The notes under the pieces: model-generated | Seen by the model: only the letters and a program-made list of their open reading frames with translations | Told to the model about the DNA's origin: nothing | Database searches by the model: none | Program-made: the position numbers and the translations under genes | Shown here: positions 1 to 22,782 of the stretch, piece after piece | How positions within the stretch are numbered: position 1 is the stretch's first letter | Layout of the letters: every line of letters starts with the position of its first letter | DNA from: Thermodesulfobacteriota bacterium | GTDB lineage: Bacteria; Desulfobacterota; Desulfarculia; JACQYL01 | DNA length: 64,000 bases | Assembly (NCBI GenBank): GCA_963675595.2 | Contig: CAXXLZ010000002.1 | Coordinates: forward strand, 480,001-544,000 | Reading direction: 5' to 3'

Positions 1-386
1 GCTTTCAGGGGAACTCCGCGGAAACGGGAGTTCCCCCCACTGGAACCGCACCCGCTTCAGTAGTTCGCTATGCCTCTGCCCGTATGTTGTTACCGACCAG
101 CGGACTTGGGCGCGTTCCCTCGTTCCCGACCTTATTCGATCGTTTCTTTCTCACCGATAATCCCGTCTCCGTTATCCCCTCGGGAATCGTATTCTCGAAT
201 GTCCCAGAAGCCTCTCACCCCGTCCGGGTCACATCATGTGCCCGAACATGCCTCCCAAGAAGTCCACGGTCTCTGAAACGCCGTGAAATCTTGTTGCCCT
301 CGGCGAAGACCTTCCGTATATTCGCTGGATAGAGTAACTCCCTTCTCATTTTCTCGCATTGTCCCACATCCGAAAAGGAACCAATC

Positions 387-2219
387 ATGCGCAGACCCCT
401 GATGCTTTATGTAATCATCTGTTTGCTGCCGGCGCTGCTCATCGTCCAATGCGGTGATGATGATTCGTCGCATAAGCAACCATCCGGTGACACCGCCGTT
501 GTCAGTCAAGCCGGATTCATTTCCATCGAGAACGTCTCGTACTCGTTTCTCAATTCGAGTAATAGCGTGCAAACCTTGTCACCCGAACCGGTTCGAATAT
601 TCTATTCTTTTCAGAAAGCCGACGATACGAACTCCGACATCAAAGCCGTGGATTTGCCCGTATTGGTCCTCTTTAACGGGGGACCGGGTGCGGCAACATC
701 CGTCAACTTTATGAGCCTGAACACGGCGGATATTACTCTCTGCAAAGCAGTCACCGGTGAAGAGCTCTACAAGACAAATCCCTATAGTTGGAGAAAGATG
801 GCCAATATCCTCTATATTGATGCTCCATGGACCGGATTCTCGTACAATTATGGGTATCAGCTTCCTTGTTTTGAAGCCTTTGTCGGTTTAGTAAACGCAA
901 ATACCTTTAATCCGTTTGTTGACGCCGACCTCATGGTCAGAGCTCTGCTTCAAATTTTGAAGAAATGTCACGTTCAGAAGAACGAAACCGTCATTGTCGG
1001 TGAGAGCTATGGTGGGACTCGCGCAACCGTGATGCTGAACATGCTCCTTTTTCCGGACAATTATCATGGTACACCGGATACCAACCACCTGTTCAAAGAC
1101 AACGCCCTGGTTGACGAAATACGTGCTCACCATCTTGCCGTTCTTGGGACGGAAGACCTGACGCCAAAAGAAATCGCGGCGAAACAGTTCGGCAAAACCG
1201 TGCTGGTTCAGCCCCAACTCACGGGAGAATACTACAACCTGGAAGCCGGGGATCTATTTTCGGAAGAAGATTCAATCATTGATGCCTTATGGAAAGAGCA
1301 AAACCTTGAGAATGTGGGGAAATGGGATCGGAGCGGAGCGCGCGGTTCCGAGAGGAGCATGAGCGCAATCACGTATGTCAGAGACAAGCTCCTTCTGGAT
1401 CCGTATTTTGTGGAAAAAGAGTCGAAGTTCACGGATAAGATGGAATATCACGCCACAAGAGGCCTCCTGCGTGCGGATGTACTTGCTAAAGTCTTGAACC
1501 TGTCCGGTCCGGAGGCGATCAAGAATATCCCCGAGTTTCTTCCTGAGACTCGATCGCAAGCGGGAGCCTACAACAAATGTGTGAGTTCATCCTGTGACGA
1601 TCTCGCGGCTCTCATTCAGAAATTGTTTGGAGAAGAACCGGTCCCCGCGCCGGTGGCGGTAAGAATAGACGAAAACGATGATCTGGTTTATGACTTACCG
1701 CCTATCGAAGACGCGACCTACGATTTAAGAAAATATCTGGGCAGCACTTCCGGATGGTGTGACGAGTATTTCAAACCTTGGGATATCATGCTCTGCTTTA
1801 TTTATTATATCGATTCCATAGACAGCATTTTCACAAAACCCATAGGGAGACGATGGGCCCGTAAAATACATCCTGATTCGGTGATGTACGGGGAGATGTT
1901 TCTTCACAATCTCGCCGTTATGGATGTCATGATCACGAATGCGGACGAAGATCTAATGATATACTCGCCGGCGGTTCCGCCGTCTCTTGCACATTATGGA
2001 GAAATTGTCACAAAGGTTGATCCCGATGACGAGAACAGCACGTTCGTTGTGCACTATAAGGAAGGTTTTCTATCGACAATAGACTCTGAAAACACAGATC
2101 CCACAAGGACCATTTATCATCCCAAATATGAACACTGCGGACACGCCGTTTCAACGGCCAAGCCTGAAAAACTGCGTAACGACGTGGCGAGTTTTCTGGG
2201 ACTTCAGATCCTTCCATAA
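387..2219 (+). CDS. Exported S10-family serine carboxypeptidase-like protein (probable lipoprotein)
   Basis: 610 aa; FNGGPG, YIDAPWTGFSY, nucleophile GESYGG and C-terminal CGHAV; hydrophobic N-terminus ending LIVQ-C; AAGGA RBS; visibly lower GC than flanks. Confidence 0.85.
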   Translation: MRRPLMLYVIICLLPALLIVQCGDDDSSHKQPSGDTAVVSQAGFISIENVSYSFLNSSNSVQTLSPEPVRIFYSFQKADDTNSDIKAVDLPVLVLFNGGPGAATSVNFMSLNTADITLCKAVTGEELYKTNPYSWRKMANILYIDAPWTGFSYNYGYQLPCFEAFVGLVNANTFNPFVDADLMVRALLQILKKCHVQKNETVIVGESYGGTRATVMLNMLLFPDNYHGTPDTNHLFKDNALVDEIRAHHLAVLGTEDLTPKEIAAKQFGKTVLVQPQLTGEYYNLEAGDLFSEEDSIIDALWKEQNLENVGKWDRSGARGSERSMSAITYVRDKLLLDPYFVEKESKFTDKMEYHATRGLLRADVLAKVLNLSGPEAIKNIPEFLPETRSQAGAYNKCVSSSCDDLAALIQKLFGEEPVPAPVAVRIDENDDLVYDLPPIEDATYDLRKYLGSTSGWCDEYFKPWDIMLCFIYYIDSIDSIFTKPIGRRWARKIHPDSVMYGEMFLHNLAVMDVMITNADEDLMIYSPAVPPSLAHYGEIVTKVDPDDENSTFVVHYKEGFLSTIDSENTDPTRTIYHPKYEHCGHAVSTAKPEKLRNDVASFLGLQILP

Positions 2220-2369
2220 CAGGTTGGTGAAAAACGCGACCTGCGGCGTTGCACTTCATCCCTCGTCACTGCGGCGTACTTCTATGTACGCCGCAGTCCT
2301 CGGGATTTGCGCGCCTTGCACGTCATCGTTTTTCACCAACCTGTGGCAACCGGATTTTTCAACGGGCTG
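2220..2369. repeat. Family A MITE/REP-like element, copy 1
   Basis: Ends CAGGTTGGTGAAAAA ... TTTTTCAACGGGCTG; internal perfect inverted repeat ACAGGTTGGTGAAAAACG/CGTTTTTCACCAACCTGT; homologous copies at 14107, 17119, 49044, 56872, 61887. Confidence 0.85.
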
Positions 2370-2471
2370 TTATCCGCCGTTGGATTTGCAGAAGAGGCGG
2401 GATATTGAGAGCCGGAACCCGGAGATGAAATAACCGTCCAAGGGGACGCTGAGGCGTTCGGCCCCCCCCTG

Positions 2472-4631
2472 CTAGTACTTCAACCGGGCGTAAAGCGTTT
2501 TCTTCGAGGCCTGTCGCGCGTCCTTCAAAGTCACGATTCCCCGTTGCGCCAGCAGGGGGATGAGCTTCAGCAGAATCTCAGCCGTAACCAGAGCGTCGCC
2601 CAACGCCGTGTGCCGCCCGGTAACCCGGATCCCCATCCGTCCGGCCACCCCTTCGATCGTGTGGTCTTTCTGGTTGGGGTGCGCCACGGCAGACAGCAGC
2701 AGCGTGTCCACAACGGCGTTGTCGAATTTCACTCCGGTGCGAGCTTCGTTGACTTGCAGCAACCGCATGTCGAAGGCGGCGTTGTGAGCCGCGAGGACGG
2801 TATTCTCACAAAACCGTGAGAAGGCGGGAAGCACTTCCTCAATTCCCGGCTGTCCCTCGAGCATTTCCGGGAGGATCCCGTGAACTTTGATCGAGGCCTC
2901 CGGCACGGGTCGCCTGGGGTCCACCAGACGATCGAATACCTCGCTTCGCAACAACCTGCCGTTCAGGAGTCGCACCGCACCTATGGAAATGATCTCGTCC
3001 CCTCCCGAGGCGTCCAGGCCCGTGGTTTCCGTATCGAATACGGTATACGTCAGCTCCCCGAGGGGAACGTCGTCCACTTCCGGTCGCTGTCCGGGCTGAT
3101 TGAACAAATCGAAATCGTAAAATTCGGGACGACTCGCCACATGGAAATGCTCCCCTTGACTCTCGGAAAAATCCGGAAAAGGCGCGGAAGGGAACAGGAA
3201 GCGAAGGCAAGATACATCCGCAGCGTCGTCCCTCTGAGGCCAGATTTCCGCATTGTGCCGTTCGAGCACTTCTCCGAGCCTCAAAGGAAGCTCCTCGCCC
3301 GTAAGCGAAAGAGTCCGGCCAAGCCAATGCTTCAGCGTCTCCAGGGGAAGTGCGGAACCTTTCCAGCATAGATCCACGTTGACGAAACGACCCTCGGACC
3401 CCAAACGACAGAAAAATTCCTCCCCCAGCTTCCTTCCCTTAATCTCATTGAGCACGAACAGAAAGGCGAGCACCAATGCATAACTGTCCACCCTCAGGTA
3501 CACGTCTCGCCCGCCGGGTGCGGCATCCAGCTTCAACCCCAGCACCTGCCCGCATTTGTGCTTTATGGCGGTCAACAGGTCCGTTCCCGCCATTTCGTCC
3601 AGGGGCCATCCGGTCCGAAATTGACAGGCCTGCTCCCCCGCCACCTGATCCACATGGTCGCTCAACGCCATGGATTCCTGCAGAATGACCTGCTTGAAAC
3701 TCCTCTCCTGCTCATCCTCCATATTGGGATACTCGATCATGGCCTCGATGGCCGCCCGGATGCCTGCCAAAGACCGACGCAGACCCTCCGTGAGGGTCTG
3801 CAAAAGATAATCCCGCTTACACTCCGTCTCAACGCGCTCCGTGATATCGGCCAGAACCAGAATGAAGCCCCGCATCTCCTTAAGTTCGTGGAGTACGGGC
3901 ACCATTTGCACCCTCAGCAGGCGTCCTCCTCCCACCGACACCGCGAAGGAATGCACCAAGCGTCCTTCCCCGCGGCGTACCCTGCGATTCAGCGTATCCA
4001 GAGAGTGGATCACCAGGTTCCGATCCACCACCCCGAAAACCGAACGGCCCAATCCCACCAGTCCCTGGTCCGTGGAAGGCTTCCCCTCGCCGTTCTCTTC
4101 GTCCGACAGCAGCCGGCGGGCTTTGGCGTTATAGAGAAGAATCCTTCCCTCGGTGTTACATACCAGGACACCGTCGGTCAGTTCGGCCATCACTGCGGCC
4201 AGGATGTTTCTCTCTTCTTCGATGCGCGCTTTGGCCTGCTCGACGTGTGTACGCTCCCTGGTCTCCGCTTCTTCAAGCCGGACCGCGATGCGGTTGATGG
4301 TGTCGACCAATCGCAACACTTCTTTTCCACCTTCGATGTTGATGCGATGGGCGGGGTTCACCGTGGCGATCACCGCGGTTTCCTCTTCCAGTCGGTGCAT
4401 GGGGATCAGGTAATAATGCAGTAGTGCATCGATGGCGAGGACGATCCCGCCCACCCCCAGGAAGAGCGCGAGAAACACGTACGCAAAACGTTCTTTCAGT
4501 ATTTCGCTGATCACCGCCCGCTGATTGGGGTCAAGTCGGTCCCAGAACAACACCGAGACGATGGTAACGCCCACCACCAGCACCACCAGGGAAAGAGCCA
4601 CGAACAGCATAAATTTGTTTCTTAAAGGCAT
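2472..4631 (-). CDS. Membrane-anchored TM-HAMP-PAS-pseudokinase-DEDDh 3'-5' exonuclease (DnaQ/epsilon-like domain)
   Basis: Likely start ATG 4631 (TGATG overlap with receiver gene), 719 aa; two N-terminal TM helices; HAMP-like segment; PAS DGVLVCNTEGRILLYN; C-terminal ExoI FDTETTG, ExoII HNAAFD, ExoIII HTALGD. Confidence 0.88.
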   Translation of the reverse strand: MPLRNKFMLFVALSLVVLVVGVTIVSVLFWDRLDPNQRAVISEILKERFAYVFLALFLGVGGIVLAIDALLHYYLIPMHRLEEETAVIATVNPAHRINIEGGKEVLRLVDTINRIAVRLEEAETRERTHVEQAKARIEEERNILAAVMAELTDGVLVCNTEGRILLYNAKARRLLSDEENGEGKPSTDQGLVGLGRSVFGVVDRNLVIHSLDTLNRRVRRGEGRLVHSFAVSVGGGRLLRVQMVPVLHELKEMRGFILVLADITERVETECKRDYLLQTLTEGLRRSLAGIRAAIEAMIEYPNMEDEQERSFKQVILQESMALSDHVDQVAGEQACQFRTGWPLDEMAGTDLLTAIKHKCGQVLGLKLDAAPGGRDVYLRVDSYALVLAFLFVLNEIKGRKLGEEFFCRLGSEGRFVNVDLCWKGSALPLETLKHWLGRTLSLTGEELPLRLGEVLERHNAEIWPQRDDAADVSCLRFLFPSAPFPDFSESQGEHFHVASRPEFYDFDLFNQPGQRPEVDDVPLGELTYTVFDTETTGLDASGGDEIISIGAVRLLNGRLLRSEVFDRLVDPRRPVPEASIKVHGILPEMLEGQPGIEEVLPAFSRFCENTVLAAHNAAFDMRLLQVNEARTGVKFDNAVVDTLLLSAVAHPNQKDHTIEGVAGRMGIRVTGRHTALGDALVTAEILLKLIPLLAQRGIVTLKDARQASKKTLYARLKY

Positions 4632-5002
4632 CAGTCGTTCCCCAACACTTCCCGGACTTTTTCCACCAGCTCCCTGGTTCCAAAAGGTTTCATCACATAG
4701 GCGTCTCCCCCCATGGCCATTCCCTTGGTCACGTCCGTATCCCGACCTTTGGCCGTGAGGAAAACAATCTTGACATCCTTCCACTCCGGGTTCTCTCTGA
4801 CACTTTGACAGACTTCAAAGCCGTCTCTGAGCGGCAGCATGATGTCCAACAAGATCAAATCGGGACCGAATCCTTGAATCTTGTTCAGGGCTTCCTCCCC
4901 GTCTCGGGCGATTTCCACCGCATAGCCCGCCTTCTTCATGAGGAATTCGAGGGAAATCACGATGCTCGGATCGTCTTCCACAATCAGGATTCTCTGGGAC
5001 AT
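4631..5002 (-). CDS. Single-domain response regulator (receiver only)
   Basis: 123 aa; ILIVEDD, LLDIMLP phospho-Asp, FLTAK, KPF; no output domain. Confidence 0.95.
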   Translation of the reverse strand: MSQRILIVEDDPSIVISLEFLMKKAGYAVEIARDGEEALNKIQGFGPDLILLDIMLPLRDGFEVCQSVRENPEWKDVKIVFLTAKGRDTDVTKGMAMGGDAYVMKPFGTRELVEKVREVLGND

Positions 5003-5044
5003 GGTGTGCTCCCCACGCCTCGACCCGGTCGAGGATATCTCGCG

Positions 5045-7819
5045 TTAATCCGTCAATGATTCGGAGCGGAGCTTCTGCAACCGCTGTTCCGCTTTGAGAG
5101 GCAAAACAAAGGAAAATACCGACCCTTTGGATGGTACGCTGTCCACCCAGATGCGGCCTCCGTGAATTTCCACGATACGTTTGGTGATGGCGAGGCCGAG
5201 CCCGCTGCCTGCGGGACGTCCGCGCACGGCATCCTCCACTTGACGAAACTTCTCGAAAATAATGTTTTGCATGGCGGGACTGATACCGACCCCGTTGTCC
5301 CTTACGTCCACACGCAGGCTGTTTTTCTGGACCTTCACGGTAATGCCGATGAAGCCCCTTTCCGGATCGCAGAATTTCACCGCGTTGGAAACGAGATTCA
5401 TTACCACCTGAGTCAAGCGATCGTGATCCCCCTCGATCTTGGGCACTTGAACGGGGATTTCGAATTCGACCTCGATGCCCTTCTCTTCAATGATTCGTCC
5501 CAAAGAGGCGAACACTTCCTGAATCACCTCCCGGATATCCACCTGGGTGAAGTCCAAGGCCACCGCGCCCGACTCGACTTTCTGGAAGTCCAGCACCTCA
5601 TTGATCAGTCGGCTTAGACGTTCGCTTTCCCTAGTGACGATATCGAGAAACTCTTTCCGCTGGGCGACATCCATATCCGGGTTGTCGATGAGGATTTCGG
5701 CGAAAGCCCGAATGGAGGTCAGGGGAGTCCTGAGTTCATGAGTAATGGTTGAAATGAATTCGTCTTTCAGTTGGTCCAACTCCTGAAGTCTGGCGTTGGC
5801 CGCTCGAAGTTCCGCCGTGGCCTGCTCGAGCTGTCTCGATTTTCGCTCCAGTTCCCGGCTATACGCCTTGATCTGTCGGGCCTCATCCACAATGTGCATC
5901 ACTTCTTCAAGGCTGACGGGTTCCTCTTTGACCACGGAGGCCACCATGGCTCTCGCGGAAGCGGAACCGATGGCCCCCGCCAGAATCTTCTCCGCATAGT
6001 CCACAAGCCCGGGGTCCGCTTCCCATGACAGGCTCCAATCCACATTGTGTTGCTTGGCGTAGGCTGCGAAGATTTCGTCCGAACGTTTAGCGCCCAAAAA
6101 CCTGGCCAACAAAGATTTCAAATCCGGCACCAGGGCGCGCCCCTTCCAGATGGTGGATTCGGCCAACATGCCCGGGGGCCTGAACACATCCACAAACAGG
6201 TTTGCCTGGTTCAGCTCGATAACGGACGGGCGACTGAGAAGAGATCCGCCGACATACAGGGAAACATTGATCAACATGCTCCAGAACATGGCGTGAGAAA
6301 CCGGATCGAAGTGCTGAAGACCGAACAGATGATCGGGTCGGAGAATGCTGATGCCGAAGGGTCCCTCATCCAGCAGCGTCACCGGCAACAGGCCGGCGTG
6401 AGACAAAGAGGGCAGCACCAGCGTATAGGCCCAGATCAAGAAACCTCCGCTCAAACCGCACAGAGCGCCCCATCGGGTGCCCCCTTTCCAGAATATGCCC
6501 CCAAGGAGGGCCGGGGCGAACTGAGCCACCGCGGTGAAAGACACCAGCCCGATGGAGACCAGAGTGTAGAATTCCCCCACATAGCGGAAGTAAACGTAGC
6601 TGAGCAACAACACCAGTATGATGACGCCTCTTCGGATTCCCAGGAGAAGACCGCCCAGTTCCTTCCTTTGTAGAAGATTGGGCTCCGGGACCCTCAGCAA
6701 CACGGGCATGACCAGGTCGTTGCACACCATGGTGCTCAAAGCGATCGTCGCCACAATGACCATGCCCGTGGCCGCGGACATGCCTCCCAGGAAGACGAAG
6801 AGCGCCAACCACTCCTTTTTTTCGGCCATGGGCAGAGCCAGTACAAAGGAATCCGCCTCCACCGGTCCCCCCGCGAAATGGACCAATCCCGCGATGGTTA
6901 CGGGCAGGACGAAAAGGTTGATGGCCCAAAGGTACAGTGGAAACAACCAGATGGCTTTCCGTATATGATCCTCGTTCACGTTCTCCACAACGGCCACCTG
7001 GAATTGTCGGGGCAGCAGGATCACGGCAAGCATGGACAGGAACACCAGCCACGTCCAGTTTCCATAGGTCCCGTGGGCGTCTCCGAAATGAAACAGTTCC
7101 ATGAGGTTGGGCACGGTCTCCGCTTTGGTGAGGATATCCGAGAAACCGTTGTAAAGCCCATAAGTGACAAATATGCCCACGGCCAGGAAGGCGGCCAATT
7201 TCACCACGGATTCGAAAGCGATGGCCGCTACCAAGCCTTCGTGTCTTTCCGTTGCGTCCAAATGGCGGGTCCCGAAAAGGATCGTAAATGCGGCGAGCAC
7301 CAGGGCCGCATAGAACGCGGTGTCGTGAAAAATGGAAAGCTGCCCGGGATCCGTAGGCATTCGGATTTCCGGATATTCACTGATGACGAGAAAACTCGTG
7401 GATATGGCTTTTAACTGAAGAGAGATGTAGGGCACGATGCCCAAGACCGCGATGACCGTGGCGAGTCCGCCCAACAGGGTACTCTTCCCGTATCTGGAGG
7501 CGATGAAATCCGCGATGGAAGTGATGCGGTGTATCTTGCTGATCCTGACGATCTTCCGGAGGACGATCCACCATAGAGGCGCCAAGACGGTGGGCCCGAT
7601 ATAAATGGGGAGGAACCCCACGCCGGAATTGGCCGCCCGTCCCACGCTTCCGTAAAAGGTCCACGCCGTACAATATACCGTGAGTGAAAGCGCGTAGATG
7701 TATGGATTGGCGATAATGCTCCTGCCCGCATCGGCACGCTTATCACCGAAATACGCAATGGCGAACAAAAGGCCCAGATAGCCGAAGGAAACGGTGAGGA
7801 TAAACCCGCCCTGCAGCAT
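5045..7819 (-). CDS. SLC5/SSS-fused sensor histidine kinase (CbrA/CrbS-like, no PAS or receiver seen)
   Basis: 924 aa; N-terminal SSS fold (YCTAWTFYGSVG, LLPRQFQV), STAC-like segment (LAGAIGSASAR), H-box THELRTPL, N/G boxes NAVKF, DNGVGI, GSGLGL. Confidence 0.93.
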   Translation of the reverse strand: MLQGGFILTVSFGYLGLLFAIAYFGDKRADAGRSIIANPYIYALSLTVYCTAWTFYGSVGRAANSGVGFLPIYIGPTVLAPLWWIVLRKIVRISKIHRITSIADFIASRYGKSTLLGGLATVIAVLGIVPYISLQLKAISTSFLVISEYPEIRMPTDPGQLSIFHDTAFYAALVLAAFTILFGTRHLDATERHEGLVAAIAFESVVKLAAFLAVGIFVTYGLYNGFSDILTKAETVPNLMELFHFGDAHGTYGNWTWLVFLSMLAVILLPRQFQVAVVENVNEDHIRKAIWLFPLYLWAINLFVLPVTIAGLVHFAGGPVEADSFVLALPMAEKKEWLALFVFLGGMSAATGMVIVATIALSTMVCNDLVMPVLLRVPEPNLLQRKELGGLLLGIRRGVIILVLLLSYVYFRYVGEFYTLVSIGLVSFTAVAQFAPALLGGIFWKGGTRWGALCGLSGGFLIWAYTLVLPSLSHAGLLPVTLLDEGPFGISILRPDHLFGLQHFDPVSHAMFWSMLINVSLYVGGSLLSRPSVIELNQANLFVDVFRPPGMLAESTIWKGRALVPDLKSLLARFLGAKRSDEIFAAYAKQHNVDWSLSWEADPGLVDYAEKILAGAIGSASARAMVASVVKEEPVSLEEVMHIVDEARQIKAYSRELERKSRQLEQATAELRAANARLQELDQLKDEFISTITHELRTPLTSIRAFAEILIDNPDMDVAQRKEFLDIVTRESERLSRLINEVLDFQKVESGAVALDFTQVDIREVIQEVFASLGRIIEEKGIEVEFEIPVQVPKIEGDHDRLTQVVMNLVSNAVKFCDPERGFIGITVKVQKNSLRVDVRDNGVGISPAMQNIIFEKFRQVEDAVRGRPAGSGLGLAITKRIVEIHGGRIWVDSVPSKGSVFSFVLPLKAEQRLQKLRSESLTD

Positions 7820-8052
7820 CAGCGACCTCGCTCCTTGGATTTTCGGGAAGAACCCTTCACCGGGCCCCGGGTGACGATCATGAAAAGAACGATCATCACG
7901 GCCCAGATCGCGAAGAAATAGGCGACCAACAGGGGAATTCCCAGAACGTTCACGTCACTGTTGAATAGGGAGAGGATCGGGTAGTCGAAAAGCAGGGCAC
8001 CCAGAAGAAAGATGGCGATGAGCCACTGATTTCCTCGGTTTCCGGAGGGCAT
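7819..8052 (-). CDS. Small two-TM membrane protein coupled to the kinase (CbrX/DUF3311-like)
   Basis: 77 aa, two hydrophobic segments, GIPLLVAYFFAIW; its stop overlaps the kinase start (TGATG). Confidence 0.8.
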   Translation of the reverse strand: MPSGNRGNQWLIAIFLLGALLFDYPILSLFNSDVNVLGIPLLVAYFFAIWAVMIVLFMIVTRGPVKGSSRKSKERGR

Positions 8053-8217
8053 GGGCAGGCTGGTCTTTCACCCGGCCGGCGTCGGGATACGTGTCGGGGT
8101 TCGGGACGCCTTCAGGCGTTGGTCACGCTTTCCGCCGGAGCACGAGCATGGCGACGCGCCGATCCGCCGCCGAAAGCGGATGGGAATCGGCGCGCCTCAA
8201 GTTGCGTCAGGCCGGGA

Positions 8218-8304
8218 TTAACCGAACACTCCGGCTCCGAACAGAATCACCCAAAAGATGGAAAAAGCCACCAAACAAATCATGGTAATGTCTTCGGCTT
8301 TCAT
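8218..8304 (-). CDS. 28-aa single-TM micro-protein (not in ORF track)
   Basis: MKAEDITMICLVAFSIFWVILFGAGVFG*; AAAGGAG RBS 7 nt upstream of ATG; co-oriented between the SSS gene and the 77-aa gene. Confidence 0.7.
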   Translation of the reverse strand: MKAEDITMICLVAFSIFWVILFGAGVFG

Positions 8305-8414
8305 GAATGTACTCCTTTCGCACGCGGCGTGAGAAAGGCGCGTTGCCGCACCGTTCCAGGACGCCGAGGCGAGGTCGTGTCACCCTTCGCCCCGGGATCC
8401 AGCTGTTTGCCGGT

Positions 8415-10202
8415 TCAGGTGATCTCCTCCACCACGATGTTCTGCTCCTTTTCCGCGCGTGCGATCTGCTCATCCGTGATGGTGGACATTTCCGCTTTGA
8501 AACAGAGGCCCCACATCATGACGATGCCGACGATCCACCAAGCGATCTGCCAGGACCACACATGAGGGAACCCCGCGAAACTGAACGCGTTGTTCCCGAG
8601 GATACAAGCGGGACCGATGGCGAAGAAGTACCACGCGGGCACGATGAACTTCATGGCATTGCGCCATTTCTGACCCGCTTCACTGGGCTTTTCGATGCTG
8701 GCCAGCCACTCTCGGACCTCTCTCTGACGTTCGATGGTCTCGGGATTGTCCTTGAAGCCGAGTCCTTTGCAGAGATAGGCCACGATGAGGCCCACGCCCA
8801 CGCCCCAAGCCGCGGAGTGAATGGTGAGGGGATATTTGATGGCAGGGATTCCATACGTGACGTATACCGCCACCATGCCGGAGAGAATACCCAACACGGT
8901 GCCCATGGAAGGCCACTTCCACCCCCACAACACTCCGAGCAGGGGAATGTACATGACGAAGCCGAAGGCCGTGGCCAAGGCTCCCAGCATGACCAGGGCC
9001 GCCTTGGAGGTCATGCCCACGGCCAGGGCCGCAATGGTCAGGATGGTGGTGAACATGCGGTTGATCCAGATCTGCTCCGCATGACCGCCCTTCTTACCAC
9101 GCACGTACCGCCACCACACGTCCCGGAGGAGAATCGAGCCGCCGGTGCCGATGTAAGGCGCCGCCGTGGAGTGCATGGCGGCAATGGCCCCGATGAACAC
9201 GATCCCCAACATGAAGCCGGGTAGGTAGGTTTTCATCAAGAGCGGTACCACGTCGGAGTCCTTGGCCAGCGAGATCACCCCCTGGTCGGCCAGAATCCTG
9301 GCGGCCATGCCCTGGAACGCGGTGAAGAAGAACAGGGCGAAGCCCACCACAAAGGTGGACATAAAGGCCTGCTGCCAGGGAAAGGGCCTGGGATTCTTGT
9401 TGGCGAAGGCCCACAGGGTGAAGGCGGGAGAAGACTGAATTCCCATGAGAGCGAACATGTAGGTCAGGATCATGATGCCGGTCCAACGCGTCTTGCCGAC
9501 GGTGAAGTCGATGACCGAAGGCACCTCGAGATACTTGGCCTCCAGTCGGCCGACTTCCATGGACAGCTTGCTCCAGCCGCCGAAGTCGTAAAGCACGTAG
9601 GCCCCGAGGATGATGATGCCGCCCACGAGGAAGAGAAATTGCATCACCCCCACCCAGGTACTGGCGCGAAGACCTCCTGTGACCACGTAGAACCACACCA
9701 CAAAGGCCAGGAAGATGGCGCCGTAGGTGGCCGGCATACCGGTGACCCAGTGAAACAAGGCGCCGGATGCCATGAGCTGCACTGCGGAATAAAACATTCC
9801 ATAAAGAAAGGCCGTGATGACGACCAACCAACGTACGCCTTCGTTGTTGTAGTAATAGGCGTACATGTCGCCCGGCGTGATGAAGCCGTAGCGCTTGCCC
9901 ATAAGCCAAGTTCGCTTGGCAAAAAATGTTCCGGTAATGGGAATGGTGAGTACGTAGAATGACGCGAAGGCGTAAGCCAGACCGTCCCGCCAGATAAGAC
10001 CGGGATGGCCGATGAAGGTCCAGCCGCTGAAGGAAGCCGCGGTGGCCGCCATCAAAAAGGCGATCATGGGAATGGAACGTCCGCCGATGGTGTAGCCGGA
10101 GGACGTCTTTTCGGTGAAATACCCCTTAAGTCCCCAGTAGAAGCAGTAAATGATGTAAATACCGAGCATTATGTAAACCCAAGTACTTGTTCCTCCCTCC
10201 AT
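8415..10202 (-). CDS. Sodium:solute symporter family transporter (candidate acetate/monocarboxylate uptake)
   Basis: 595 aa polytopic; ATAASFSGWTFIGHPG, GGLRA, AAMHST motifs; AGGAGG RBS; divergent from acs. Substrate is inferred from context. Confidence 0.9.
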   Translation of the reverse strand: MEGGTSTWVYIMLGIYIIYCFYWGLKGYFTEKTSSGYTIGGRSIPMIAFLMAATAASFSGWTFIGHPGLIWRDGLAYAFASFYVLTIPITGTFFAKRTWLMGKRYGFITPGDMYAYYYNNEGVRWLVVITAFLYGMFYSAVQLMASGALFHWVTGMPATYGAIFLAFVVWFYVVTGGLRASTWVGVMQFLFLVGGIIILGAYVLYDFGGWSKLSMEVGRLEAKYLEVPSVIDFTVGKTRWTGIMILTYMFALMGIQSSPAFTLWAFANKNPRPFPWQQAFMSTFVVGFALFFFTAFQGMAARILADQGVISLAKDSDVVPLLMKTYLPGFMLGIVFIGAIAAMHSTAAPYIGTGGSILLRDVWWRYVRGKKGGHAEQIWINRMFTTILTIAALAVGMTSKAALVMLGALATAFGFVMYIPLLGVLWGWKWPSMGTVLGILSGMVAVYVTYGIPAIKYPLTIHSAAWGVGVGLIVAYLCKGLGFKDNPETIERQREVREWLASIEKPSEAGQKWRNAMKFIVPAWYFFAIGPACILGNNAFSFAGFPHVWSWQIAWWIVGIVMMWGLCFKAEMSTITDEQIARAEKEQNIVVEEIT

Positions 10203-10370
10203 TCCTTACCTCCTAACACGCGGTCCGGTTGCTTTGCGGAATGCCGCACATGTTTGTTGAATGACGTGGAACTCGGGTTTTCAGTCTGTCGCCGGTGTCG
10301 GAAATCCCTCCTTTCCCCTGAAAGGGGTACCCAATACGGGCCGCCGCCCGCCGGGAACGAGGTGCGGGAC

Positions 10371-10413
10371 AAAAAAATACCGGTTCCCGATTATACCGGT
10401 ACCGGTTCTTTTT
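10371..10413 (-). terminator. Imperfect hairpin plus T-run upstream of the SSS gene (possible attenuator)
   Basis: Minus strand ACCGGTACCGG-TATAAT-CGGGAACCGGT-ATTTTTTT; two mismatches in the stem. Confidence 0.4.
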
Positions 10414-11947
10414 CTTTGTTGGAACCCATCACTCATGAAGCGGATCACGTCCCAACCTCCCTTCCCTCGGGTTGCCCTCTTCGCCGTCCCGCCTGCCGGT
10501 CAATTGCCGGGAACAGGCAGTCGGCGCCTTCGGCCGATTCTTCCCTTGGAGCGTACACGGCATCGCAGGGTTACCCATTCATTGAACACTACGGCAAGAA
10601 CGGGTTGCTGATTGGGAAAATTTACAGAACAACACCACCGGTGACCATGCAACTTCATTAGGACTCACCGGGGCAGTCCCAAACCCTCTCAATCCCCCAC
10701 CCGACAAGCGCGGCCAAGTAAGGGACCTTGCGCCGGAGGCTCTGCAAAGGCTCCGGATTCTGCGAACCTAACCTTTTCCCTCTCACCTCCTTTCGCGCCC
10801 GGAAATGAACTACCACAGGAAACATCCTGAATATAGGCGGAAATTGTTATCCTTTCTCTCATAGTCCCCCGGCGACTGTCAAGAAGGAAAATTTCTTTCC
10901 CTGGAAGGATCACGCATGGAAGAGGCTAACTCACTGAGTTCCAACAGGAACCGACGGCGAAAGTCGAAACTTTTTGTGGCCATCCGGCGGAAATCGGACC
11001 AAGGCTTGGTTGCCACGCGAAGTTTTTTTAGTACCGGTCCGTGAACGTACGAAAGCCGTCGCTCCCTCAACACGCCCGACCGTTCTTAACTTGCTGATGC
11101 CACAATATATCGGACCGATTCGACCGTTCTTCCCGTACATGGCCGCAGCCTTTCAGAATTATGCTTTATTTTGCAGGAAAACTAGGGTAAGAGAAGAAGC
11201 TAGCCGTTACTTCCAATTCTCTACAGCGCGATGCGATGCCGGAATTGCGACTTCATCCCAATCTTTCGACGGACTCCATCCGGCGTGCGGCGATACGATT
11301 TCTCAACTAAGCCTATACGATAACAACGCCACTCAGGATTACGGATATCGAGATTACAGACGGGATGGAGAGGGGTACGTGATCCCCACACCCATTCGTC
11401 TGCATGTCGACACGGCGGATCGTTTTGTGTTCGCCGAACCCCAATGGAAAGGAGGGATGCCGTTCAGCGGTCTCCGACCGCTTCAGGCCGGTCGAGTTCA
11501 GGCCGACGTTTAGACGCCGACGGCGGGAGCTGTTCGAAACCCGCTTTGCCCGGCCCTCTCCGTCATGCCCTTAGAGCCTTCGATCGGTTCCGTTCGCCGG
11601 ACTTCTGCTCTGACGAAACCGGGAGGCTTGACTGTACGCATTAACCACCCTGTTTTCGAAGCAAAGAGCGATTTCCAACCGCTTAGTCGGTCATCCGGAA
11701 ACGTTGTTGTTCCCGGATAAGACCCTCTTAGGAGTACGCAACGGACCTATGTGCCGCTTCTTCACCCGCCACAACCATCCCCACGTCGGATGTAGAGAAG
11801 CCCCTCCGCAGGGCATCTCCTATCCAGGCTGTCTTTTTCTCCCCCACCCGACTTCAACCGTCGGACCAGGCCGTCTTTGCCGGACGATTCGGCGCAGTCG
11901 TATTCCGAGCAACTCCACCACCACCACAAGACAAGGAGGGTATTGTA

Positions 11948-13933
11948 ATGGCGGTTATTGAAAAGGATGGGAAGTTCTATCCCGACGAGCAGTTCGTCGC
12001 CCAAGCCCACGTCAAGAGCTTCCAGCAGTATCAGGAAATGTACAAGAGGTCCGTCGAAGACCCTGAGGGTTTCTGGATGGATGTGGCCAACGAGTTGTTC
12101 TGGTACAAGAAACCCGAAAAGGTCATGGAGTACAACTTCGATATCCGCAAAGGCAAGGTCTTTCACAAATGGTTCGAGGGCGGTGTCACCAACATGTGCT
12201 ACAATGCGATAGATCGGCACCTCGATACCCCCACCCGCAACCGTGCCGCCATCATCTGGCAAGGCGAACCCGACGAAGACACCAAAGTCTTGACGTATCA
12301 GACCCTCCATCGGGAAGTCTGTCGATTCGCCAACGTGCTCAAGAAGAAAGGCCTCAAACGCGGGGATCGTGTCAGCATCTATCTTCCCATGATCTGGCAG
12401 CTTCCCGTGGTCATGCTTTCCTGCGCCCGCCTGGGCCTCCCGCACAGCGTGGTTTTCGGCGGATTCTCCGCCGACGCCTTGGCCCATCGTGTGGAGGAGA
12501 GCGAATCCAAGCTCCTGATCACCACGGATCATTCCATCCGGGCCGGAAAACTGTTCAACCTGAAAGACAACGCCGATGAAGCCCTGAAGAGCTGCCCCAA
12601 ATGCGAATACGTCATTGTGGTGCAGAGGACCGGCAAGGACATCCCCTGGACCGAAGGTAGGGACTCCTGGTACCACGAGGAAATGGTCGCCGAAGACATC
12701 TCGGATGTCTGCGAGTGCGAGCAGATGGGCGCCGAAGACATGCTTTATCTGCTTTACACCAGCGGCAGCACGGGTAAGCCCAAAGGGCAGGTGCACACCA
12801 CGGGCGGATATCTGGTCTATACGTATCTGACCCAGAAGCTCGTCTTCGACCTGCAGCCGGAGAGCCTGTACTGGTGCATGGCGGACATCGGGTGGGTCAC
12901 GGGTCACAGCTACATCGTGTACGCGCCGCTGGTCAACGGCACCACCACTTTCATGTACGAAGGCACTCCCCTGTATCCCAAACCCGACCGTGCTTGGGAA
13001 CTGATTGAACGATACAAAATCAACATCTGCTACACCGCTCCCACGGCCATTCGGGCCCTGTCCCGCCAAGGCGAGGATTGGCCCCGAAACAGAGACATGT
13101 CCAGCCTCAGACTGCTGGGCACCGTGGGTGAGCCCATCAACCCCGAAGCCTGGCTCTGGTACCACGAAAACGTGGGTAAAGGAAACTGCCCCATCGTGGA
13201 TACCTGGTGGCAAACGGAAACCGGCGGTATCTGCATCACGCCGCTGCCCGGCGCTTGGCCCACCAAACCCGGCGCCGCCACCTTCCCCTTCTTCGGCATC
13301 ATTCCCAAGGTGACCGACCCCGGAGCGGAAGACGAGACCAAACGCGGTGAAGAAATGGCGGCCGGAAAAACGGGCCACCTCTGCATTGAAAAACCCTGGC
13401 CCGGATTGTCCCGTACCATCTACGGAGACCATGAGCGTTGGGAGCAGACCTACTTCGCCGATTATCCCGGCATGTATTTCACCGGCGACGGTTGCCTCAT
13501 GGACGAAGAGGGATATCACTTCCTCCAGGGCCGGGTGGACGACGTCATCAACATCTCCGGCCATCGCATCAGCACCGCGGAAGTGGAAAGCGCCCTGGTG
13601 CTCCATCCCTCCGTGGCGGAAGCCGCTGCTGCGGGCATGCCCCACGAAATCAAGGGGCAAGGCATTTACGTCTTTGTCACCCTCAAGATGGGCGTGGATG
13701 GAACCGATGAGCTGAAAAAAGAGCTCATCAACCATGTACGAAAAGAGATCGGCGCCATCGCCACTCCGGATAAGCTCCAGTTCGCCCCCGCCCTTCCCAA
13801 AACTCGAAGCGGCAAAATCATGCGTCGAATTCTGAGGAAAATCGCGGAGGACAAGACGGACGAACTGGGCGACGTTTCCACGCTGGAAGACTCCGAAGTG
13901 ATCACTCGCCTCGTGGCGGAGAGAATCGAATAA
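11948..13933 (+). CDS. acs: Acetyl-CoA synthetase (AMP-forming)
   Basis: 661 aa; YTSGSTGKPKG, DTWWQTETG, GRVDDVIN, acetylation motif PKTRSGKIMRR; AAGGAGG RBS. Confidence 0.96.
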   Translation: MAVIEKDGKFYPDEQFVAQAHVKSFQQYQEMYKRSVEDPEGFWMDVANELFWYKKPEKVMEYNFDIRKGKVFHKWFEGGVTNMCYNAIDRHLDTPTRNRAAIIWQGEPDEDTKVLTYQTLHREVCRFANVLKKKGLKRGDRVSIYLPMIWQLPVVMLSCARLGLPHSVVFGGFSADALAHRVEESESKLLITTDHSIRAGKLFNLKDNADEALKSCPKCEYVIVVQRTGKDIPWTEGRDSWYHEEMVAEDISDVCECEQMGAEDMLYLLYTSGSTGKPKGQVHTTGGYLVYTYLTQKLVFDLQPESLYWCMADIGWVTGHSYIVYAPLVNGTTTFMYEGTPLYPKPDRAWELIERYKINICYTAPTAIRALSRQGEDWPRNRDMSSLRLLGTVGEPINPEAWLWYHENVGKGNCPIVDTWWQTETGGICITPLPGAWPTKPGAATFPFFGIIPKVTDPGAEDETKRGEEMAAGKTGHLCIEKPWPGLSRTIYGDHERWEQTYFADYPGMYFTGDGCLMDEEGYHFLQGRVDDVINISGHRISTAEVESALVLHPSVAEAAAAGMPHEIKGQGIYVFVTLKMGVDGTDELKKELINHVRKEIGAIATPDKLQFAPALPKTRSGKIMRRILRKIAEDKTDELGDVSTLEDSEVITRLVAERIE

Positions 13934-13994
13934 ACGAACCGGATCCCAACTTCTTCGCGGCCCTCCTTCCTTGAAGGAGGACTGTCGGGAAAGC

Positions 13995-14040
13995 ATCGGA
14001 GGGGCCTTTTCGATGTGAGAAAAGGCCCCTCCGATTATTT
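13995..14040 (+). terminator. Rho-independent terminator after acs
   Basis: Perfect 17-bp stem ATCGGAGGGGCCTTTTC/GAAAAGGCCCCTCCGAT followed by TATTT. Confidence 0.75.
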
Positions 14041-14106
14041 GGGATGGCAACCATTCCGGACGGCTTGCGGGAGTCCGCCGGCAAGCGGCTTCCCCCCGGC
14101 CTCCAA

Positions 14107-14229
14107 CAGTGCCCCAAAAAAGTCGGATTGTTGCGGGCCGTTGAAAAACGATGAGATGCAAGGCGCCCAAATCCCGATCAACGAGGCGTACATGGAAGTA
14201 CGCCGCAGATTGCGTTTTTCCACGGGCTG
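14107..14229. repeat. Family A element, copy 2 (internally shortened)
   Basis: GGCCGTTGAAAAACGATGAGATGCAAGGCGCCCAAATCCCG...GCGTACATGGAAGTACGC...TTTTTCCACGGGCTG; abuts the cobO stop. Confidence 0.8.
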
Positions 14230-14766
14230 CTAAAACTCGATTCCCCTCTGCGCCTTGATCCCCTGTTTATGGTGATGTTTGACTTCCCGCATCTCGGTCA
14301 CCGTGTCCGCAGCGTCCATGATGGTCTGAGGCGCCCGCCTGCCGGTGAGTATCAAATTCACGGACGACGGCTTGTTTTTCAGCAGTTCCACCACTTCTTC
14401 CTCGCCGATGAAACCGTAATCCACGATGAGATGAATCTCATCCAGGACCACCAAGTCGTAATCCCCTGACATGACTTTGCTTCGAGCCGTTTCCCAGGCG
14501 GAGCGAGCCTGTTCCCTGTCCTTGTCGGAACTCTCGTGACGTTTCACCATGCCCAGGCCGAGCGGATGAATCTCCAGATTCGGCACGTGGCGAATCGATT
14601 CCAGTTCTCCATACTTCCAGGCTCCCTTGATGAACTGGATGATGATCACTCTGAGTCCCTGCCCCGCCGCGCGCAGCGCCGCCCCCAAAGCGGCCGTGGT
14701 TTTGCCTTTGCCGTTGCCCGTGTTCACCAGGATCAAACCCCGGTGTTCTTCCGATGTGGTTTTCAC
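14230..14766 (-). CDS. cobO: Cob(I)alamin adenosyltransferase, CobO/BtuR type
   Basis: 178 aa; TGNGKGKTTAA, QFIKG, LDE, LTGR, QRGIEF C-terminus. Confidence 0.93.
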   Translation of the reverse strand: MKTTSEEHRGLILVNTGNGKGKTTAALGAALRAAGQGLRVIIIQFIKGAWKYGELESIRHVPNLEIHPLGLGMVKRHESSDKDREQARSAWETARSKVMSGDYDLVVLDEIHLIVDYGFIGEEEVVELLKNKPSSVNLILTGRRAPQTIMDAADTVTEMREVKHHHKQGIKAQRGIEF

Positions 14767-17269: not shown

Positions 17270-18592
17270 TCAAGTGTGTTCTTCTTTGGAAGTCTTCTTT
17301 CTTTGAATAACCGTGGTCGCTGCCGTGACGCCGGATTTCGCCGGCGACACGCTCGGGCCCGTCTTTGCCTGAAGCCTTGCCTGCAGAGCCGCTTCCCTGG
17401 CGGCTTGGATGTCGAGCACCACCATCAGACCGCTCTCGGCCCAAGATTGATAGTCCTTAAAGGCCGTAGCTTCCGTAAAGGCTTTTCGCGCCAGTTCCCA
17501 GTTCTTCAGTTCCGTCGCGGAGAATCCCACCAGGAGGTAGGCCTTTCCCTGGTTGGGGTCCAACTCCAGACTGTGTTGCAGGCTCTCGACGGCCTTCTCG
17601 TAGTCCCGGTTCAGGTAATGGTACTTACCTTCGATAAAATGTCGCTCCGCGTTGGGCTGCACCTCCACGGCCGTCCGAATATGGTGCATGGCCTCCTCAT
17701 ATCGGAACGCGCGGGCGAGCAGCGAGGCGATCTTTTCATGCTCTTCCGCGGAAACGGCTCCCCGATGAGCTTTATTGAGGCTTTCCACAGCCCGCAGCGG
17801 GGCGTTGAGATAGCGGTACAGATCGGACAAGTCCTTCCAGTTGGTGAGTTCGGGTGGATCAAGACGGTAAGCCACTTCGAGCGCCGCAGCCGCTTCCTCG
17901 TAACTCTGCCGCCGAATCTTGATCTGGGCCAGGAGCTTCCAATAATCCGCTCTATCACGCACGTGGGGCATGAACTGAGAAAGCGATCCGTCGGCCTTTT
18001 CCCAGTCCTCCATTTGAACGTAGGTGTGGACCAACAGTTTCAGCCATTCGGCCTTTGGAGTCTCCTTCGTTTCCATCAGCATTGCAAGGGTGCTTTCGAC
18101 TTGCGTAAAGGCACGCCCGCTATAGTACGCGGAAGCCGCCTTATACAGTAAATCGGGTTCCTGAGCTTCCCCGGTCCGTTTCTGCAGTTCGTAGGCTTTG
18201 AGAAACGAGTTTCCCGAGTCGACGAAATCTTCCACATAGTAGCTCGAAACCGCAAAATTCAGGTGCAGGGAGACGTTCTCCGGGTGAAATCGAAGCCCCT
18301 CGGCATAGACGTTTCCGGCGCTCCGGTAATCTTCCAGCTGGTACCAAGCGTTGCCGAGCAGAAGGAATACCTCCACCGGAGGCGCTTCAGGCTTCTTCAG
18401 CAGGTATTTCTCCAACACTTTTACGGTGTCGTCGTATCTACCTTCCACAAAGGCCAATTGCGCCTTGTACAAGGCTTTGTGGGCATCCCTCGGAAGCGGG
18501 GACGGCGACGACGCCCCGACCGGGAGGCACCACAAAAAAAGGAAAGTAACCAACATCATGATTCGCAGGAATCCGTTTGCTCCGGGTTTCAT
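17270..18592 (-). CDS. Periplasmic TPR protein of the TonB2-like system (TtpD-like)
   Basis: Signal peptide, repeated TPR helices (LLLGNAWYQ, YWKLLAQ, AYLLVG); last gene of the TonB operon; start ATG 18592 preferred. Confidence 0.85.
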   Translation of the reverse strand: MKPGANGFLRIMMLVTFLFLWCLPVGASSPSPLPRDAHKALYKAQLAFVEGRYDDTVKVLEKYLLKKPEAPPVEVFLLLGNAWYQLEDYRSAGNVYAEGLRFHPENVSLHLNFAVSSYYVEDFVDSGNSFLKAYELQKRTGEAQEPDLLYKAASAYYSGRAFTQVESTLAMLMETKETPKAEWLKLLVHTYVQMEDWEKADGSLSQFMPHVRDRADYWKLLAQIKIRRQSYEEAAAALEVAYRLDPPELTNWKDLSDLYRYLNAPLRAVESLNKAHRGAVSAEEHEKIASLLARAFRYEEAMHHIRTAVEVQPNAERHFIEGKYHYLNRDYEKAVESLQHSLELDPNQGKAYLLVGFSATELKNWELARKAFTEATAFKDYQSWAESGLMVVLDIQAAREAALQARLQAKTGPSVSPAKSGVTAATTVIQRKKTSKEEHT

Positions 18593-18787
18593 AGGCTTAT
18601 CCACCTTTCCCTCTTTCTCGCGCCGGATGGAGCGACTTCCGCCCCATGCACGCATCCGGCGTTTCATCGTTTGCGGAACGGCCCGATTCGGCCCCGATCT
18701 TCCAAGCATCGCAATAACGAAACGCCTTTTGGGGCCATTTATGGGAATGGACCACCGTTAAGGCGTTGAGTTGAGCGGTATCTGCAG

Positions 18788-19480: not shown

Positions 19481-19516
19481 CCGGCTTGTTTCTCAGTCGA
19501 TCGGTTCATATCCCCG

Positions 19517-19930: not shown

Positions 19931-19948
19931 GATAAAGACTCCGTTGCC

Positions 19949-22738: not shown

Positions 22739-22782
22739 CGGCAATATCCTGTCCGAAGCCTTTTTGGCTCGGGAAATGGGTT

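Follow-up and report, generated by a model that had tools for sequence, protein, structure and literature searches.

An SLC5-type sensor kinase linked to a membrane-anchored pseudokinase-exonuclease protein in a widely conserved four-gene bacterial module

SLC5-STAC histidine kinases such as CbrA and CrbS/MxtR are central regulators of carbon metabolism, and to our knowledge all known outputs of this kinase type are transcription factors. What does such a kinase control when the genes packed around it encode no DNA-binding protein? The question is raised by a 64,000-nucleotide stretch of a Thermodesulfobacteriota genome (assembly GCA_963675595.2, contig CAXXLZ010000002.1, positions 480,001 to 544,000; the whole stretch is referred to below as the window). 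Four co-oriented minus-strand open reading frames (ORFs) are tightly packed there over 8052-2472 (ORF listing). They form a real and widely conserved signalling cassette, the output of which is apparently an enzyme rather than gene expression. The four genes, and one segment of the last of them, are the following.

8052..7819, minus strand: membrane peptide of 77 amino acids (aa) with two hydrophobic helices (ORF listing)
7819..5045, minus strand: SLC5-STAC-type sensor histidine kinase, 924 aa (ORF listing; Pfam HisKA and HATPase_c; match to PDB 10ED)
5002..4631, minus strand: receiver-only response regulator, 123 aa, OmpR/PhoB receiver type (Pfam Response_reg, residues 5-117)
4631..2472, minus strand: transmembrane (TM)-HAMP-PAS-pseudokinase-DEDDh exonuclease, 719 aa (Pfam PAS_4 and RNase_T; hhalign; AlphaFold2; Foldseek)
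3179..3842, minus strand: predicted pseudokinase core of the 719-aa protein, residues about 264-485 (hhalign columns compared with kinase invariants)

TGATG stop/start overlaps join the peptide and kinase genes at 7819 (gcTGATGctg) and the receiver and exonuclease genes at 4631 (acTGATGcct), and 42 nucleotides separate the kinase stop from the receiver start. The ORF listing allows the exonuclease frame to be extended to a GTG at 4784 inside the receiver gene (770 aa); with the ATG at 4631 as start, the product has 719 aa and is as long as an identical database protein and the full-length relatives. In a comparison with a variant strain from a public sequencing run, 30 of the 35 listed differences within 2919-3987 fell at third codon positions (136 further differences exist beyond those listed). 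The coding frame of the exonuclease gene is therefore under purifying selection.

Pfam assigned PAS_4 (residues 151-267) and RNase_T (531-687; 1.1e-32) to the 719-aa protein. The NCBIfam kinase models WalK, NblS, and PnpS aligned to its residues 34-330. A profile of the family run against the PDB retrieved VicK (4i5s; E 1.5e-14, residues 239-488), ThkA (3a0r; 3.8e-9, residues 142-482), HK853, and others, and hhalign placed residues 246-485 on residues 643-911 of the module's own kinase (96.2% probability, E 2.6e-9, 236 columns). The AlphaFold2 model (mean predicted local distance difference test, pLDDT, 77.8) begins with two N-terminal helices, a HAMP-like pair with a long helix, and a PAS fold, and continues with two DHp helices (264-300 and 306-333) and an alpha/beta domain (345-482), after which a disordered linker (487-507) leads to the exonuclease. 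Foldseek searches with this model returned WalK, VicK, and LOV-kinases (E 1e-21 to 1e-14), followed by the PolC, DinG, and epsilon exonucleases. From the profile, hhalign, AlphaFold2, and Foldseek evidence, the order of the protein is therefore TM-HAMP-PAS-pseudokinase-DEDDh and not TM-HAMP-PAS-DEDDh.

The DHp-like helices at 264-333 contain no His, and the CA-like domain at 345-482 contains no ATP motifs. The column of the kinase His694 is occupied by E282, and the H-box position is variable among 18 relatives, with Q or E in most. The N-box columns N808 and N812 hold F392 and E396, the G1 motif DxGxG is replaced by WxGxA with an invariant W423 in the column of D841, and G2 is lost. Because the phospho-acceptor His and the ATP motifs have disappeared, residues about 264-485 are, as judged from sequence, a complete histidine-kinase core gone dead, i.e., a pseudokinase. 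A relative in Noviherbaspirillum (L098 6772-7008) keeps His-Glu at the H-box position (LTHETR); its locus contains a receiver and no SLC5 kinase, and the closest relative by DHp in the same genome, an ORF of 707 aa, is located 2.4 Mb away.

The exonuclease domain spans about residues 525-719. Residues D533, E535, D621, H674, and D679 were invariant in alignments of 18 and of 47 relatives, and the DEDDh catalytic set is predicted to be intact. The domain scored 102.5 bits against the TIGR00573 domain model (cut-off 71.5), and its profile matched the PolC exonuclease of T. maritima (2p1j; E 6.5e-47) and E. coli epsilon (1e-24) in the PDB. The same two alignments revealed invariant residues in the PAS domain (C158, N159, G162, Y167, N168, G193, R196, and S197), and because the domain has invariant residues of its own, they suggest a ligand for it. 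In the otherwise disordered linker preceding the exonuclease, the motif FYDFDLF (window 3102-3125, minus strand; residues 503-510) has D506, F507, L509, and F510 invariant in 47 sequences at a pLDDT below 50. This motif resembles the beta-clamp-binding pentapeptides (QL[SD]LF), but it might just as well serve to dock the DUF294 nucleotidyltransferase described below or the CA-like domain.

The sensor kinase contains HisKA (685-751; 5.8e-19) and HATPase_c (797-909; 1.4e-28) according to Pfam, with neither a PAS nor a receiver domain. H694, N808, N812, D841, G843, G845, and G871-L876 were invariant in 17 orthologues, and its DHp/CA part is predicted to be catalytically complete by the H-box His and the N, G1, and G2 boxes. 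The membrane half had no SSF match in Pfam or NCBIfam, and hhalign of the kinase against the SSF transporter of the window gave 0.5% probability. As a single sequence, residues 8-484 matched PDB chain 10ED_A (E 5e-70), and the profile of 17 orthologues matched 10ED at E 2.4e-99, with residues 5-626 on 8-589 of 606. 10ED is the CbrXA SLC5-STAC structure (PMC13488458). The profile match reaches kinase residue 626 (chain residue 589 of 606), far enough along the SLC5-STAC construct to take in a putative STAC-like linker. A look-alike search of the Atlas gave the cluster 'Sodium/solute symporter' (0.97), PF00474 being present in 18% of its members, and served as a lead only. The kinase is assigned as a CbrA-type 'transceptor', with the 10ED match as the sole basis of the predicted SLC5 part. 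Among 81 kinase-core matches in the genome, no second one of this kind was full-length.

The 77-aa peptide had no match in Pfam, NCBIfam, or the PDB sequences. The paper on 10ED describes CbrX as a helical-hairpin membrane peptide on the SLC5 domain of CbrA, with cbrX translationally coupled to and overlapping cbrA (PMC13488458). By its position, its overlap, and its two hydrophobic helices, the 77-aa gene is a putative CbrX counterpart. The module resembles the CbrX/CbrA-CbrB and CrbS/CrbR (MxtR/ErdR) systems of Pseudomonas and Vibrio in its SLC5 and putative STAC-like parts fused to DHp/CA, in the small two-helix membrane peptide gene that overlaps the kinase start both here and in cbrX, and, as in the CrbS/R regulon, in adjoining acs and a solute symporter gene. 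It differs in that the kinase lacks the PAS of CbrA and the receiver domain of the hybrid CrbS, the peptide lacks a detectable PDB sequence match, and the partner, unlike CbrB and CrbR, is a 123-aa receiver without a DNA-binding or AAA+ domain, the output being apparently an enzyme.

The receiver consists of Response_reg (5-117) with no other Pfam domain. Its best NCBIfam matches were the receiver halves of YycF, PhoB, and MtrA, and D9, D10, D53, and K105 were conserved in 29 orthologues of about 120 aa, all of which are receiver-only. The adjacent regulator is thus no cognate DNA-binding regulator of the CbrB, CrbR, or RpuR type. These observations bear out most of what the original prediction, made from the DNA letters and their translations, had said of the unit. 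The four minus-strand ORFs and both TGATG overlaps were read in the sequence, the SLC5-fused kinase was recovered via 10ED and not via Pfam, the regulator is receiver-only here and in the 29 orthologues, and no DNA-binding regulator occurs among the four genes. For the last gene, a TM-HAMP-PAS protein with an intact DEDDh exonuclease had been proposed; the domains and catalytic residues stand, but the pseudokinase core between PAS and exonuclease had been missed. Also absent from it were the DUF294 partner gene and the DHp likeness described below, and a conserved 28-aa micro-ORF that begins exactly at 8304, the end coordinate given there.

Conservation of the module was examined in database relatives of the 719-aa protein. 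At least 350 proteins matched at E <= 0.001 among the 7,999 candidates scored. All 120 listed relatives had at least 89% query cover and 42-50% identity and were full-length, membrane-anchored HAMP-PAS-pseudokinase fusions; as had been expected, their database names read 'DNA polymerase-3 subunit epsilon'. In the species-representative genomes, a relative was encoded in at least 564 of 596 stretches picked out by pattern matching. The four-gene unit is conserved in Betaproteobacteria, Gammaproteobacteria, Alphaproteobacteria, Desulfobacterales, SAR324, and Chloroflexota. Neighbourhoods were counted in the 80 best loci, of which 69 had at least 500 bp upstream, 64 had at least 3.5 kb upstream, and 49 were fully flanked. 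The receiver gene was immediately upstream of and co-oriented with the exonuclease gene in 62 of the 69 loci. Among the seven misses, it was present in L038 (a distance filter failure), adjacent but inverted in L060, and absent in L013, L046, L056, L077, and L078. An SLC5 kinase gene was found directly upstream in 51 of the 64 loci and anywhere in the locus in 54, and tblastn detected the 77-aa peptide gene upstream of the kinase in 26 of the 49. The arrangement was repeated in a second set of 80 loci, partly overlapping the first and not de-duplicated; in near-full-length matches from all 160 loci, the receiver was adjacent in 128 of 145. No DNA-binding gene is present within the unit, and none is conserved across the loci. 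The linkage of exonuclease, receiver, and kinase genes that the original prediction called for is therefore widespread.

A further gene accompanies the unit. A DUF294 nucleotidyltransferase, usually with CBS and often with cyclic nucleotide monophosphate (cNMP)-binding domains, was encoded in 63 of the 80 loci and in 41 of the 49 fully flanked ones, in line with a suggested co-occurrence. Its gene lies either directly after the exonuclease gene (within 300 bp in 22 of 49) or directly before the peptide and kinase genes. In Dechloromonas (L018 12162-15828), the exonuclease gene is followed by two DUF294 genes, encoding a sensor-less protein of 355 aa and a cNMP-CBS protein of 658 aa, and these by a 208-aa ORF without a family and a 761-aa SSF transporter.

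A DnaQ-type exonuclease and a cNMP/CBS/DUF294 nucleotidyltransferase near acetate/carboxylate uptake genes are also known from Pseudomonas, as PP_0353/PP_0354 (PA3232/PA3233). In two studies, PP_0353 (an RNase_T-type exonuclease) and PP_0354 (a cNMP-CBS-nucleotidyltransferase) of Pseudomonas putida are direct and strongly dependent targets of MxtR/ErdR (CrbS/CrbR), deletion mutants are mildly impaired on pyruvate and on propionate, and no function is assigned to either protein (PMC9927547; bioRxiv 10.64898/2026.09.07.749794), which agrees with the earlier statement that DnaQ-like genes near acs/actP have no assigned role. PA3232-PA3235 are induced on propionate according to a further paper (PMC9765439). 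The exonuclease there is small and soluble and, in the two studies on P. putida, under transcriptional control by ErdR, whereas the exonuclease here is fused to a membrane sensor-pseudokinase and has its own kinase and receiver. A Pseudomonas genome with the four-gene unit also contains a DUF294-then-exonuclease pair, the exonuclease of which is 32% identical to that of the module. Taken together, the regulation of PP_0353/PP_0354 and this genome indicate that the same enzyme pair is apparently under two kinds of SLC5-kinase control, transcriptional in the studied species and post-translational here.

How could the kinase reach the enzyme? We lean, at somewhat less than even confidence, towards a two-component module with an enzyme instead of a transcription factor as output, in which the phosphorylated receiver docks on the pseudokinase and gates an exonuclease that works with the DUF294 protein. 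The parts list and the linkage are observed, and from them we infer each step as follows. The kinase would read the state of its transporter-like domain, a carboxylate being plausible, and phosphorylate the receiver. Once phosphorylated, the receiver would bind the pseudokinase core at its His-less DHp helices, in the manner of DivK~P on DivL. Binding would alter the conformation of the dimeric HAMP-PAS-DHp scaffold and hence how active or how accessible the exonuclease at the C-terminus is. This enzyme would remove what the DUF294 nucleotidyltransferase adds, close to the transport machinery of the membrane; the addition could be a protein-bound nucleotide tag, an extension at a 3' end, or a short linear signal made of nucleotides. 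The enzyme pair would be the same as PP_0353/PP_0354, placed here under post-translational control instead of transcription by CrbR/ErdR. The whole chain, from carboxylate flux through receiver docking to exonucleolytic erasure of the nucleotide mark or short signal that the cNMP/CBS-gated DUF294 protein writes, as a reversible write/erase switch on organic-acid uptake and activation, is possible though doubtful.

The pseudokinase core is the likeliest place of receiver action. A DHp profile of 79 columns built from 47 family members was run against all ORFs of the genome that are 120 aa or longer (18,988 in number); this genome holds at least 81 kinase cores. The profile scored 102.7 bits against the protein itself and 42.3 bits against the module kinase, the next two matches having 18.0 and 17.1 bits. 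With an independent profile of 27 sequences, the kinase located 1.7-1.9 kb upstream scored 43.8-53.1 bits in four other genomes from three classes, with the next matches at 13.7-22.6 bits; in a fifth other genome, at a locus without an SLC5 kinase, the best match was a distant ORF (37.0 bits). The corresponding CA-like profile gave no link to the module kinase, its best non-self match being 13.8 bits. The DHp parts may be alike because the pseudokinase descends from the partner kinase, or has co-adapted with it, in the region that recognises the receiver; it would equally allow hetero-oligomerisation of the two DHp domains. The genome of Accumulibacter phosphatis (that of L132) encodes two pseudokinase-exonuclease paralogues (C1:292777-293013 and C1:3612615-3612848; 111.9 and 83.2 bits to the DHp profile), and an SLC5 kinase was seen adjoining only the second.

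The receiver was also modelled in complex with two copies of the pseudokinase core, in three runs and with 3 controls. The complex scored 0.32 (runs 0.32, 0.34, and 0.29) against 0.01 for the best control and was rated 'weak support'; at least 83% of the contacts were common to the runs, and the partner pLDDT was at least 82. In calibration, this mark let through 116 of the 157 solved complexes and 2 of the 215 mismatched pairs; only 18 of the 157 did so with scores of <= 0.60, as did both mismatches. This was the sole direct test of the idea, put forward in the original prediction, that phosphorylation controls the nuclease, and that idea stays correspondingly tentative.

Docking of this kind has a known counterpart. 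In Caulobacter, the pseudo-histidine kinase DivL binds the phosphorylated single-domain receiver DivK, and a DivL chain (4q20) is among the PDB matches of the kinase core. Like the 719-aa protein, DivL is a membrane-anchored PAS-DHp-CA protein without a phospho-acceptor His that is paired with a receiver-only protein, and here too the receiver would be read by docking and not by phosphotransfer. DivL, however, has retained a CA domain of the ATP-binding type, and what it regulates is a second kinase, CckA, whereas the pseudokinase here has no ATP motifs and carries its own enzyme, the DEDDh exonuclease; receiver binding, for its part, is suggested here by the weak model score only.

Several observations weigh against receiver docking on the core. 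In the reverse search with the kinase DHp as a single query, the pseudokinase ranked 38th of 118 domain matches, with 37 in other ORFs ahead of it, and the canonical specificity positions after the His are only partly common to both DHps. The score of the complex lies in the weak band and may be a memory of solved kinase-receiver complexes (HK853-RR468, ThkA-TrrA). In a Burkholderiales locus (L109 5995-7506), the exonuclease protein lacks residues about 273-458, i.e., the pseudokinase core, and the array acs-peptide-kinase-receiver-exonuclease-DUF294 is intact, so the link to the receiver does not obviously depend on the core. Nine loci contain a full pseudokinase and no receiver within the fetched flanks. 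Ten loci had been flagged as receiver-less, L108 wrongly (its receiver was split into two matches), and with L108 included in the means, identity to the consensus in these loci versus the others was 0.485 vs 0.543 for DHp, 0.485 vs 0.549 for HAMP-PAS, and 0.475 vs 0.577 for CA, i.e., no DHp-specific loss of conservation was found. The role given to DUF294 meets a difficulty in this very genome, where the cNMP-CBS-DUF294-DUF294_C protein (636 aa) is encoded on the opposite strand, 5.9 kb past the exonuclease stop and just outside the window, and an IS110-family transposase, a 540-aa ORF without a family, and a 610-aa S10-peptidase-like ORF intervene. Because of these intervening genes and the inversion relative to Desulfobacterales loci, a rearranged copy of the usual array, produced by insertion or rearrangement, is suggested.

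A core-less protein also occurs in the genome studied here. The paralogue at G000:C2:1062812-1064428 (538 aa; 39% and 55% identity to the two ends of the 719-aa protein) has TM-HAMP-PAS joined straight to the linker and exonuclease, the core is missing, and neither kinase nor receiver is found beside its gene. It belongs to a second exonuclease/DUF294 set outside the window (G000:C2:1061314-1065669; L094 7314-11669), together with a 472-aa Cache protein and a convergent 385-aa DUF294 protein without sensor domains. A search with this short form showed L109 to be the only core-less relative among 80 loci. The two core-less cases, one without receiver and kinase and one with both kept, count one each way, and the natural variants settle the association of receiver and core neither way.

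Other explanations assign the parts differently. The pseudokinase could act on the kinase, its DHp forming a hetero-oligomer with that of the SLC5 kinase that tunes the kinase or gates the exonuclease, while the receiver serves as a phosphate sink or has another target. RetS forms such hetero-oligomers with GacS, RetS chains are among the PDB relatives of the kinase core, both proteins are membrane proteins of one unit, and the DHp profile picked the neighbouring kinase far above others in 5 of 5 genomes. The place of the receiver gene between the kinase and exonuclease genes in nearly every locus (62 of 69) and the complex model, which passed its controls, though weakly, speak against this arrangement, and we hold it to be improbable. 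Somewhat easier to entertain, although still unlikely, is a receiver that targets DUF294, the transporter, or Acs, the exonuclease being under its own HAMP/PAS sensor only and the linkage marking one pathway. The core-less L109, which retains kinase and receiver, the nine loci with a pseudokinase and no receiver nearby, and the invariant PAS residues that suggest a ligand would all fit it. It is harder to reconcile with a receiver gene that directly precedes, and often overlaps, the exonuclease gene while the DUF294 gene changes sides; a dead core kept at 42-50% identity across phyla also needs a reason, and receiver docking is the known one.

The familiar scheme would have the kinase signal mainly via a DNA-binding regulator elsewhere, CrbR/CbrB-like or PhoB-like, acting on acs and the transporter gene, with the receiver only modulating phosphate flow. 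In the published literature, the known SLC5-STAC kinases (CbrA, CrbS/MxtR, RpuS) have DNA-binding partners. The closest receiver paralogue in the genome (46% identity) lies within a 258-aa ORF, which has room for an output domain, and adjoins the kinase whose DHp is closest to that of the module kinase. That paralogue, however, has its own adjacent kinase, the module kinase contains no receiver domain and in 51 of 64 loci keeps a receiver-only gene at its side, and no DNA-binding gene is conserved in the loci, all of which makes this scheme distinctly improbable. Least of all are we inclined to see in the last gene a plain DNA polymerase III epsilon-like proofreading or repair exonuclease with an incidental sensor part, an explanation to which hardly any weight can be given. 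The database names say so, structural comparison places the domain nearest to the exonucleases of PolC, epsilon, and DinG, and the fold and catalytic residues are those of the epsilon/PolC proofreading domain. The exonuclease nevertheless reached only 99.3 bits against the dnaQ equivalog TIGR01406 (cut-off 222.7) and 97.6 bits against PRK05711 (cut-off 196). It is fused to a membrane anchor and HAMP-PAS-pseudokinase in all 120 listed matches, its invariant linker (FYDFDLF) and C-terminal tail (...ARL.Y) are peculiar to the family, and it lies outside any polymerase context, being linked to kinase, receiver, DUF294, acs, and transporter genes and not to replication genes.

The genes that adjoin the module in the window, and the displaced DUF294 region, are listed below.

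8221..8304, minus strand: hydrophobic micro-ORF, 28 aa (strong Shine-Dalgarno; tblastn conservation)
8415..10202, minus strand: sodium:solute symporter family transporter, 595 aa, directly upstream of the module and co-oriented with it (PF00474, E 1.9e-28)
11948..13933, plus strand: acetyl-CoA synthetase gene (acs), divergent from the transporter gene (TIGR02188, 937 bits vs cut-off 725)
G000:C2:474651-480386 (locus L091 8651-14386), left of the window, together with 387-2219 of the window: displaced DUF294 partner region, DUF294 inverted relative to related Desulfobacterales loci

The original prediction had named acetate or carboxylate flux as the signal. For acetate the neighbourhood offers little: acs was present in only 20 of the 49 fully flanked loci, and the transporter scored 27 bits against the ActP model (cut-off 750), i.e., it is not an ActP equivalog by sequence. 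In Desulfobacterales loci, orthologues of the transporter (66-81% identical) lie between acs and the receiver gene. The micro-ORF is located between the transporter gene and the 77-aa gene. With tblastn it was recovered over its full length (28 of 28 residues, 46-68% identity) in the corresponding position of 11 loci, on 10 contigs, from Desulfobacterales and SAR324; its pattern is MK.ED..MI..., and it had no family in Pfam or NCBIfam. Contigs of an RNA-library run (X10, 16% of words) covered 8232-10266 only, i.e., the transporter and micro-ORF region, and overlapped the micro-ORF, which is probably an unannotated transporter accessory peptide.

An Rfam scan of 1-14500 gave no family at gathering score. 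A promoter scan found 3 sites vs 3.5 expected, and a scan for terminator-like sequences 19 vs 11.5 expected, one of them (2448-2435, minus strand) just past the exonuclease stop. The 1.7 kb between the divergent transporter and acs genes (10203-11947) contains no family-bearing ORF and no Rfam match; in Desulfobacterales relatives, unlike here, acs and the transporter gene are close together and co-oriented. A TonB/ExbD/ExbB cluster with two DUF3450 proteins and a TPR protein (17270-22744, minus strand) is ordinary and unrelated to the module.

No published description of the pseudokinase-exonuclease or of the four-gene system was found among papers available without subscription. An SLC5 kinase wired to an enzyme through a pseudokinase would represent a different two-component logic. 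It also provides a handle on the long-orphan pair of DnaQ-like exonuclease and DUF294 protein in the acetate/propionate regulon of Pseudomonas and Vibrio, since the fused, regulated form of the exonuclease suggests biochemical experiments that the small soluble form does not. The module is present in at least 564 species-representative genomes, including those of the wastewater bacteria Accumulibacter, Competibacter, Dechloromonas, and Zoogloea. In polyphosphate- and glycogen-accumulating wastewater bacteria, control of acetate uptake is a key physiological trait. If the proposed write/erase switch is true, it would be present in hundreds of bacterial species and would also explain the orphan PP_0353/PP_0354.

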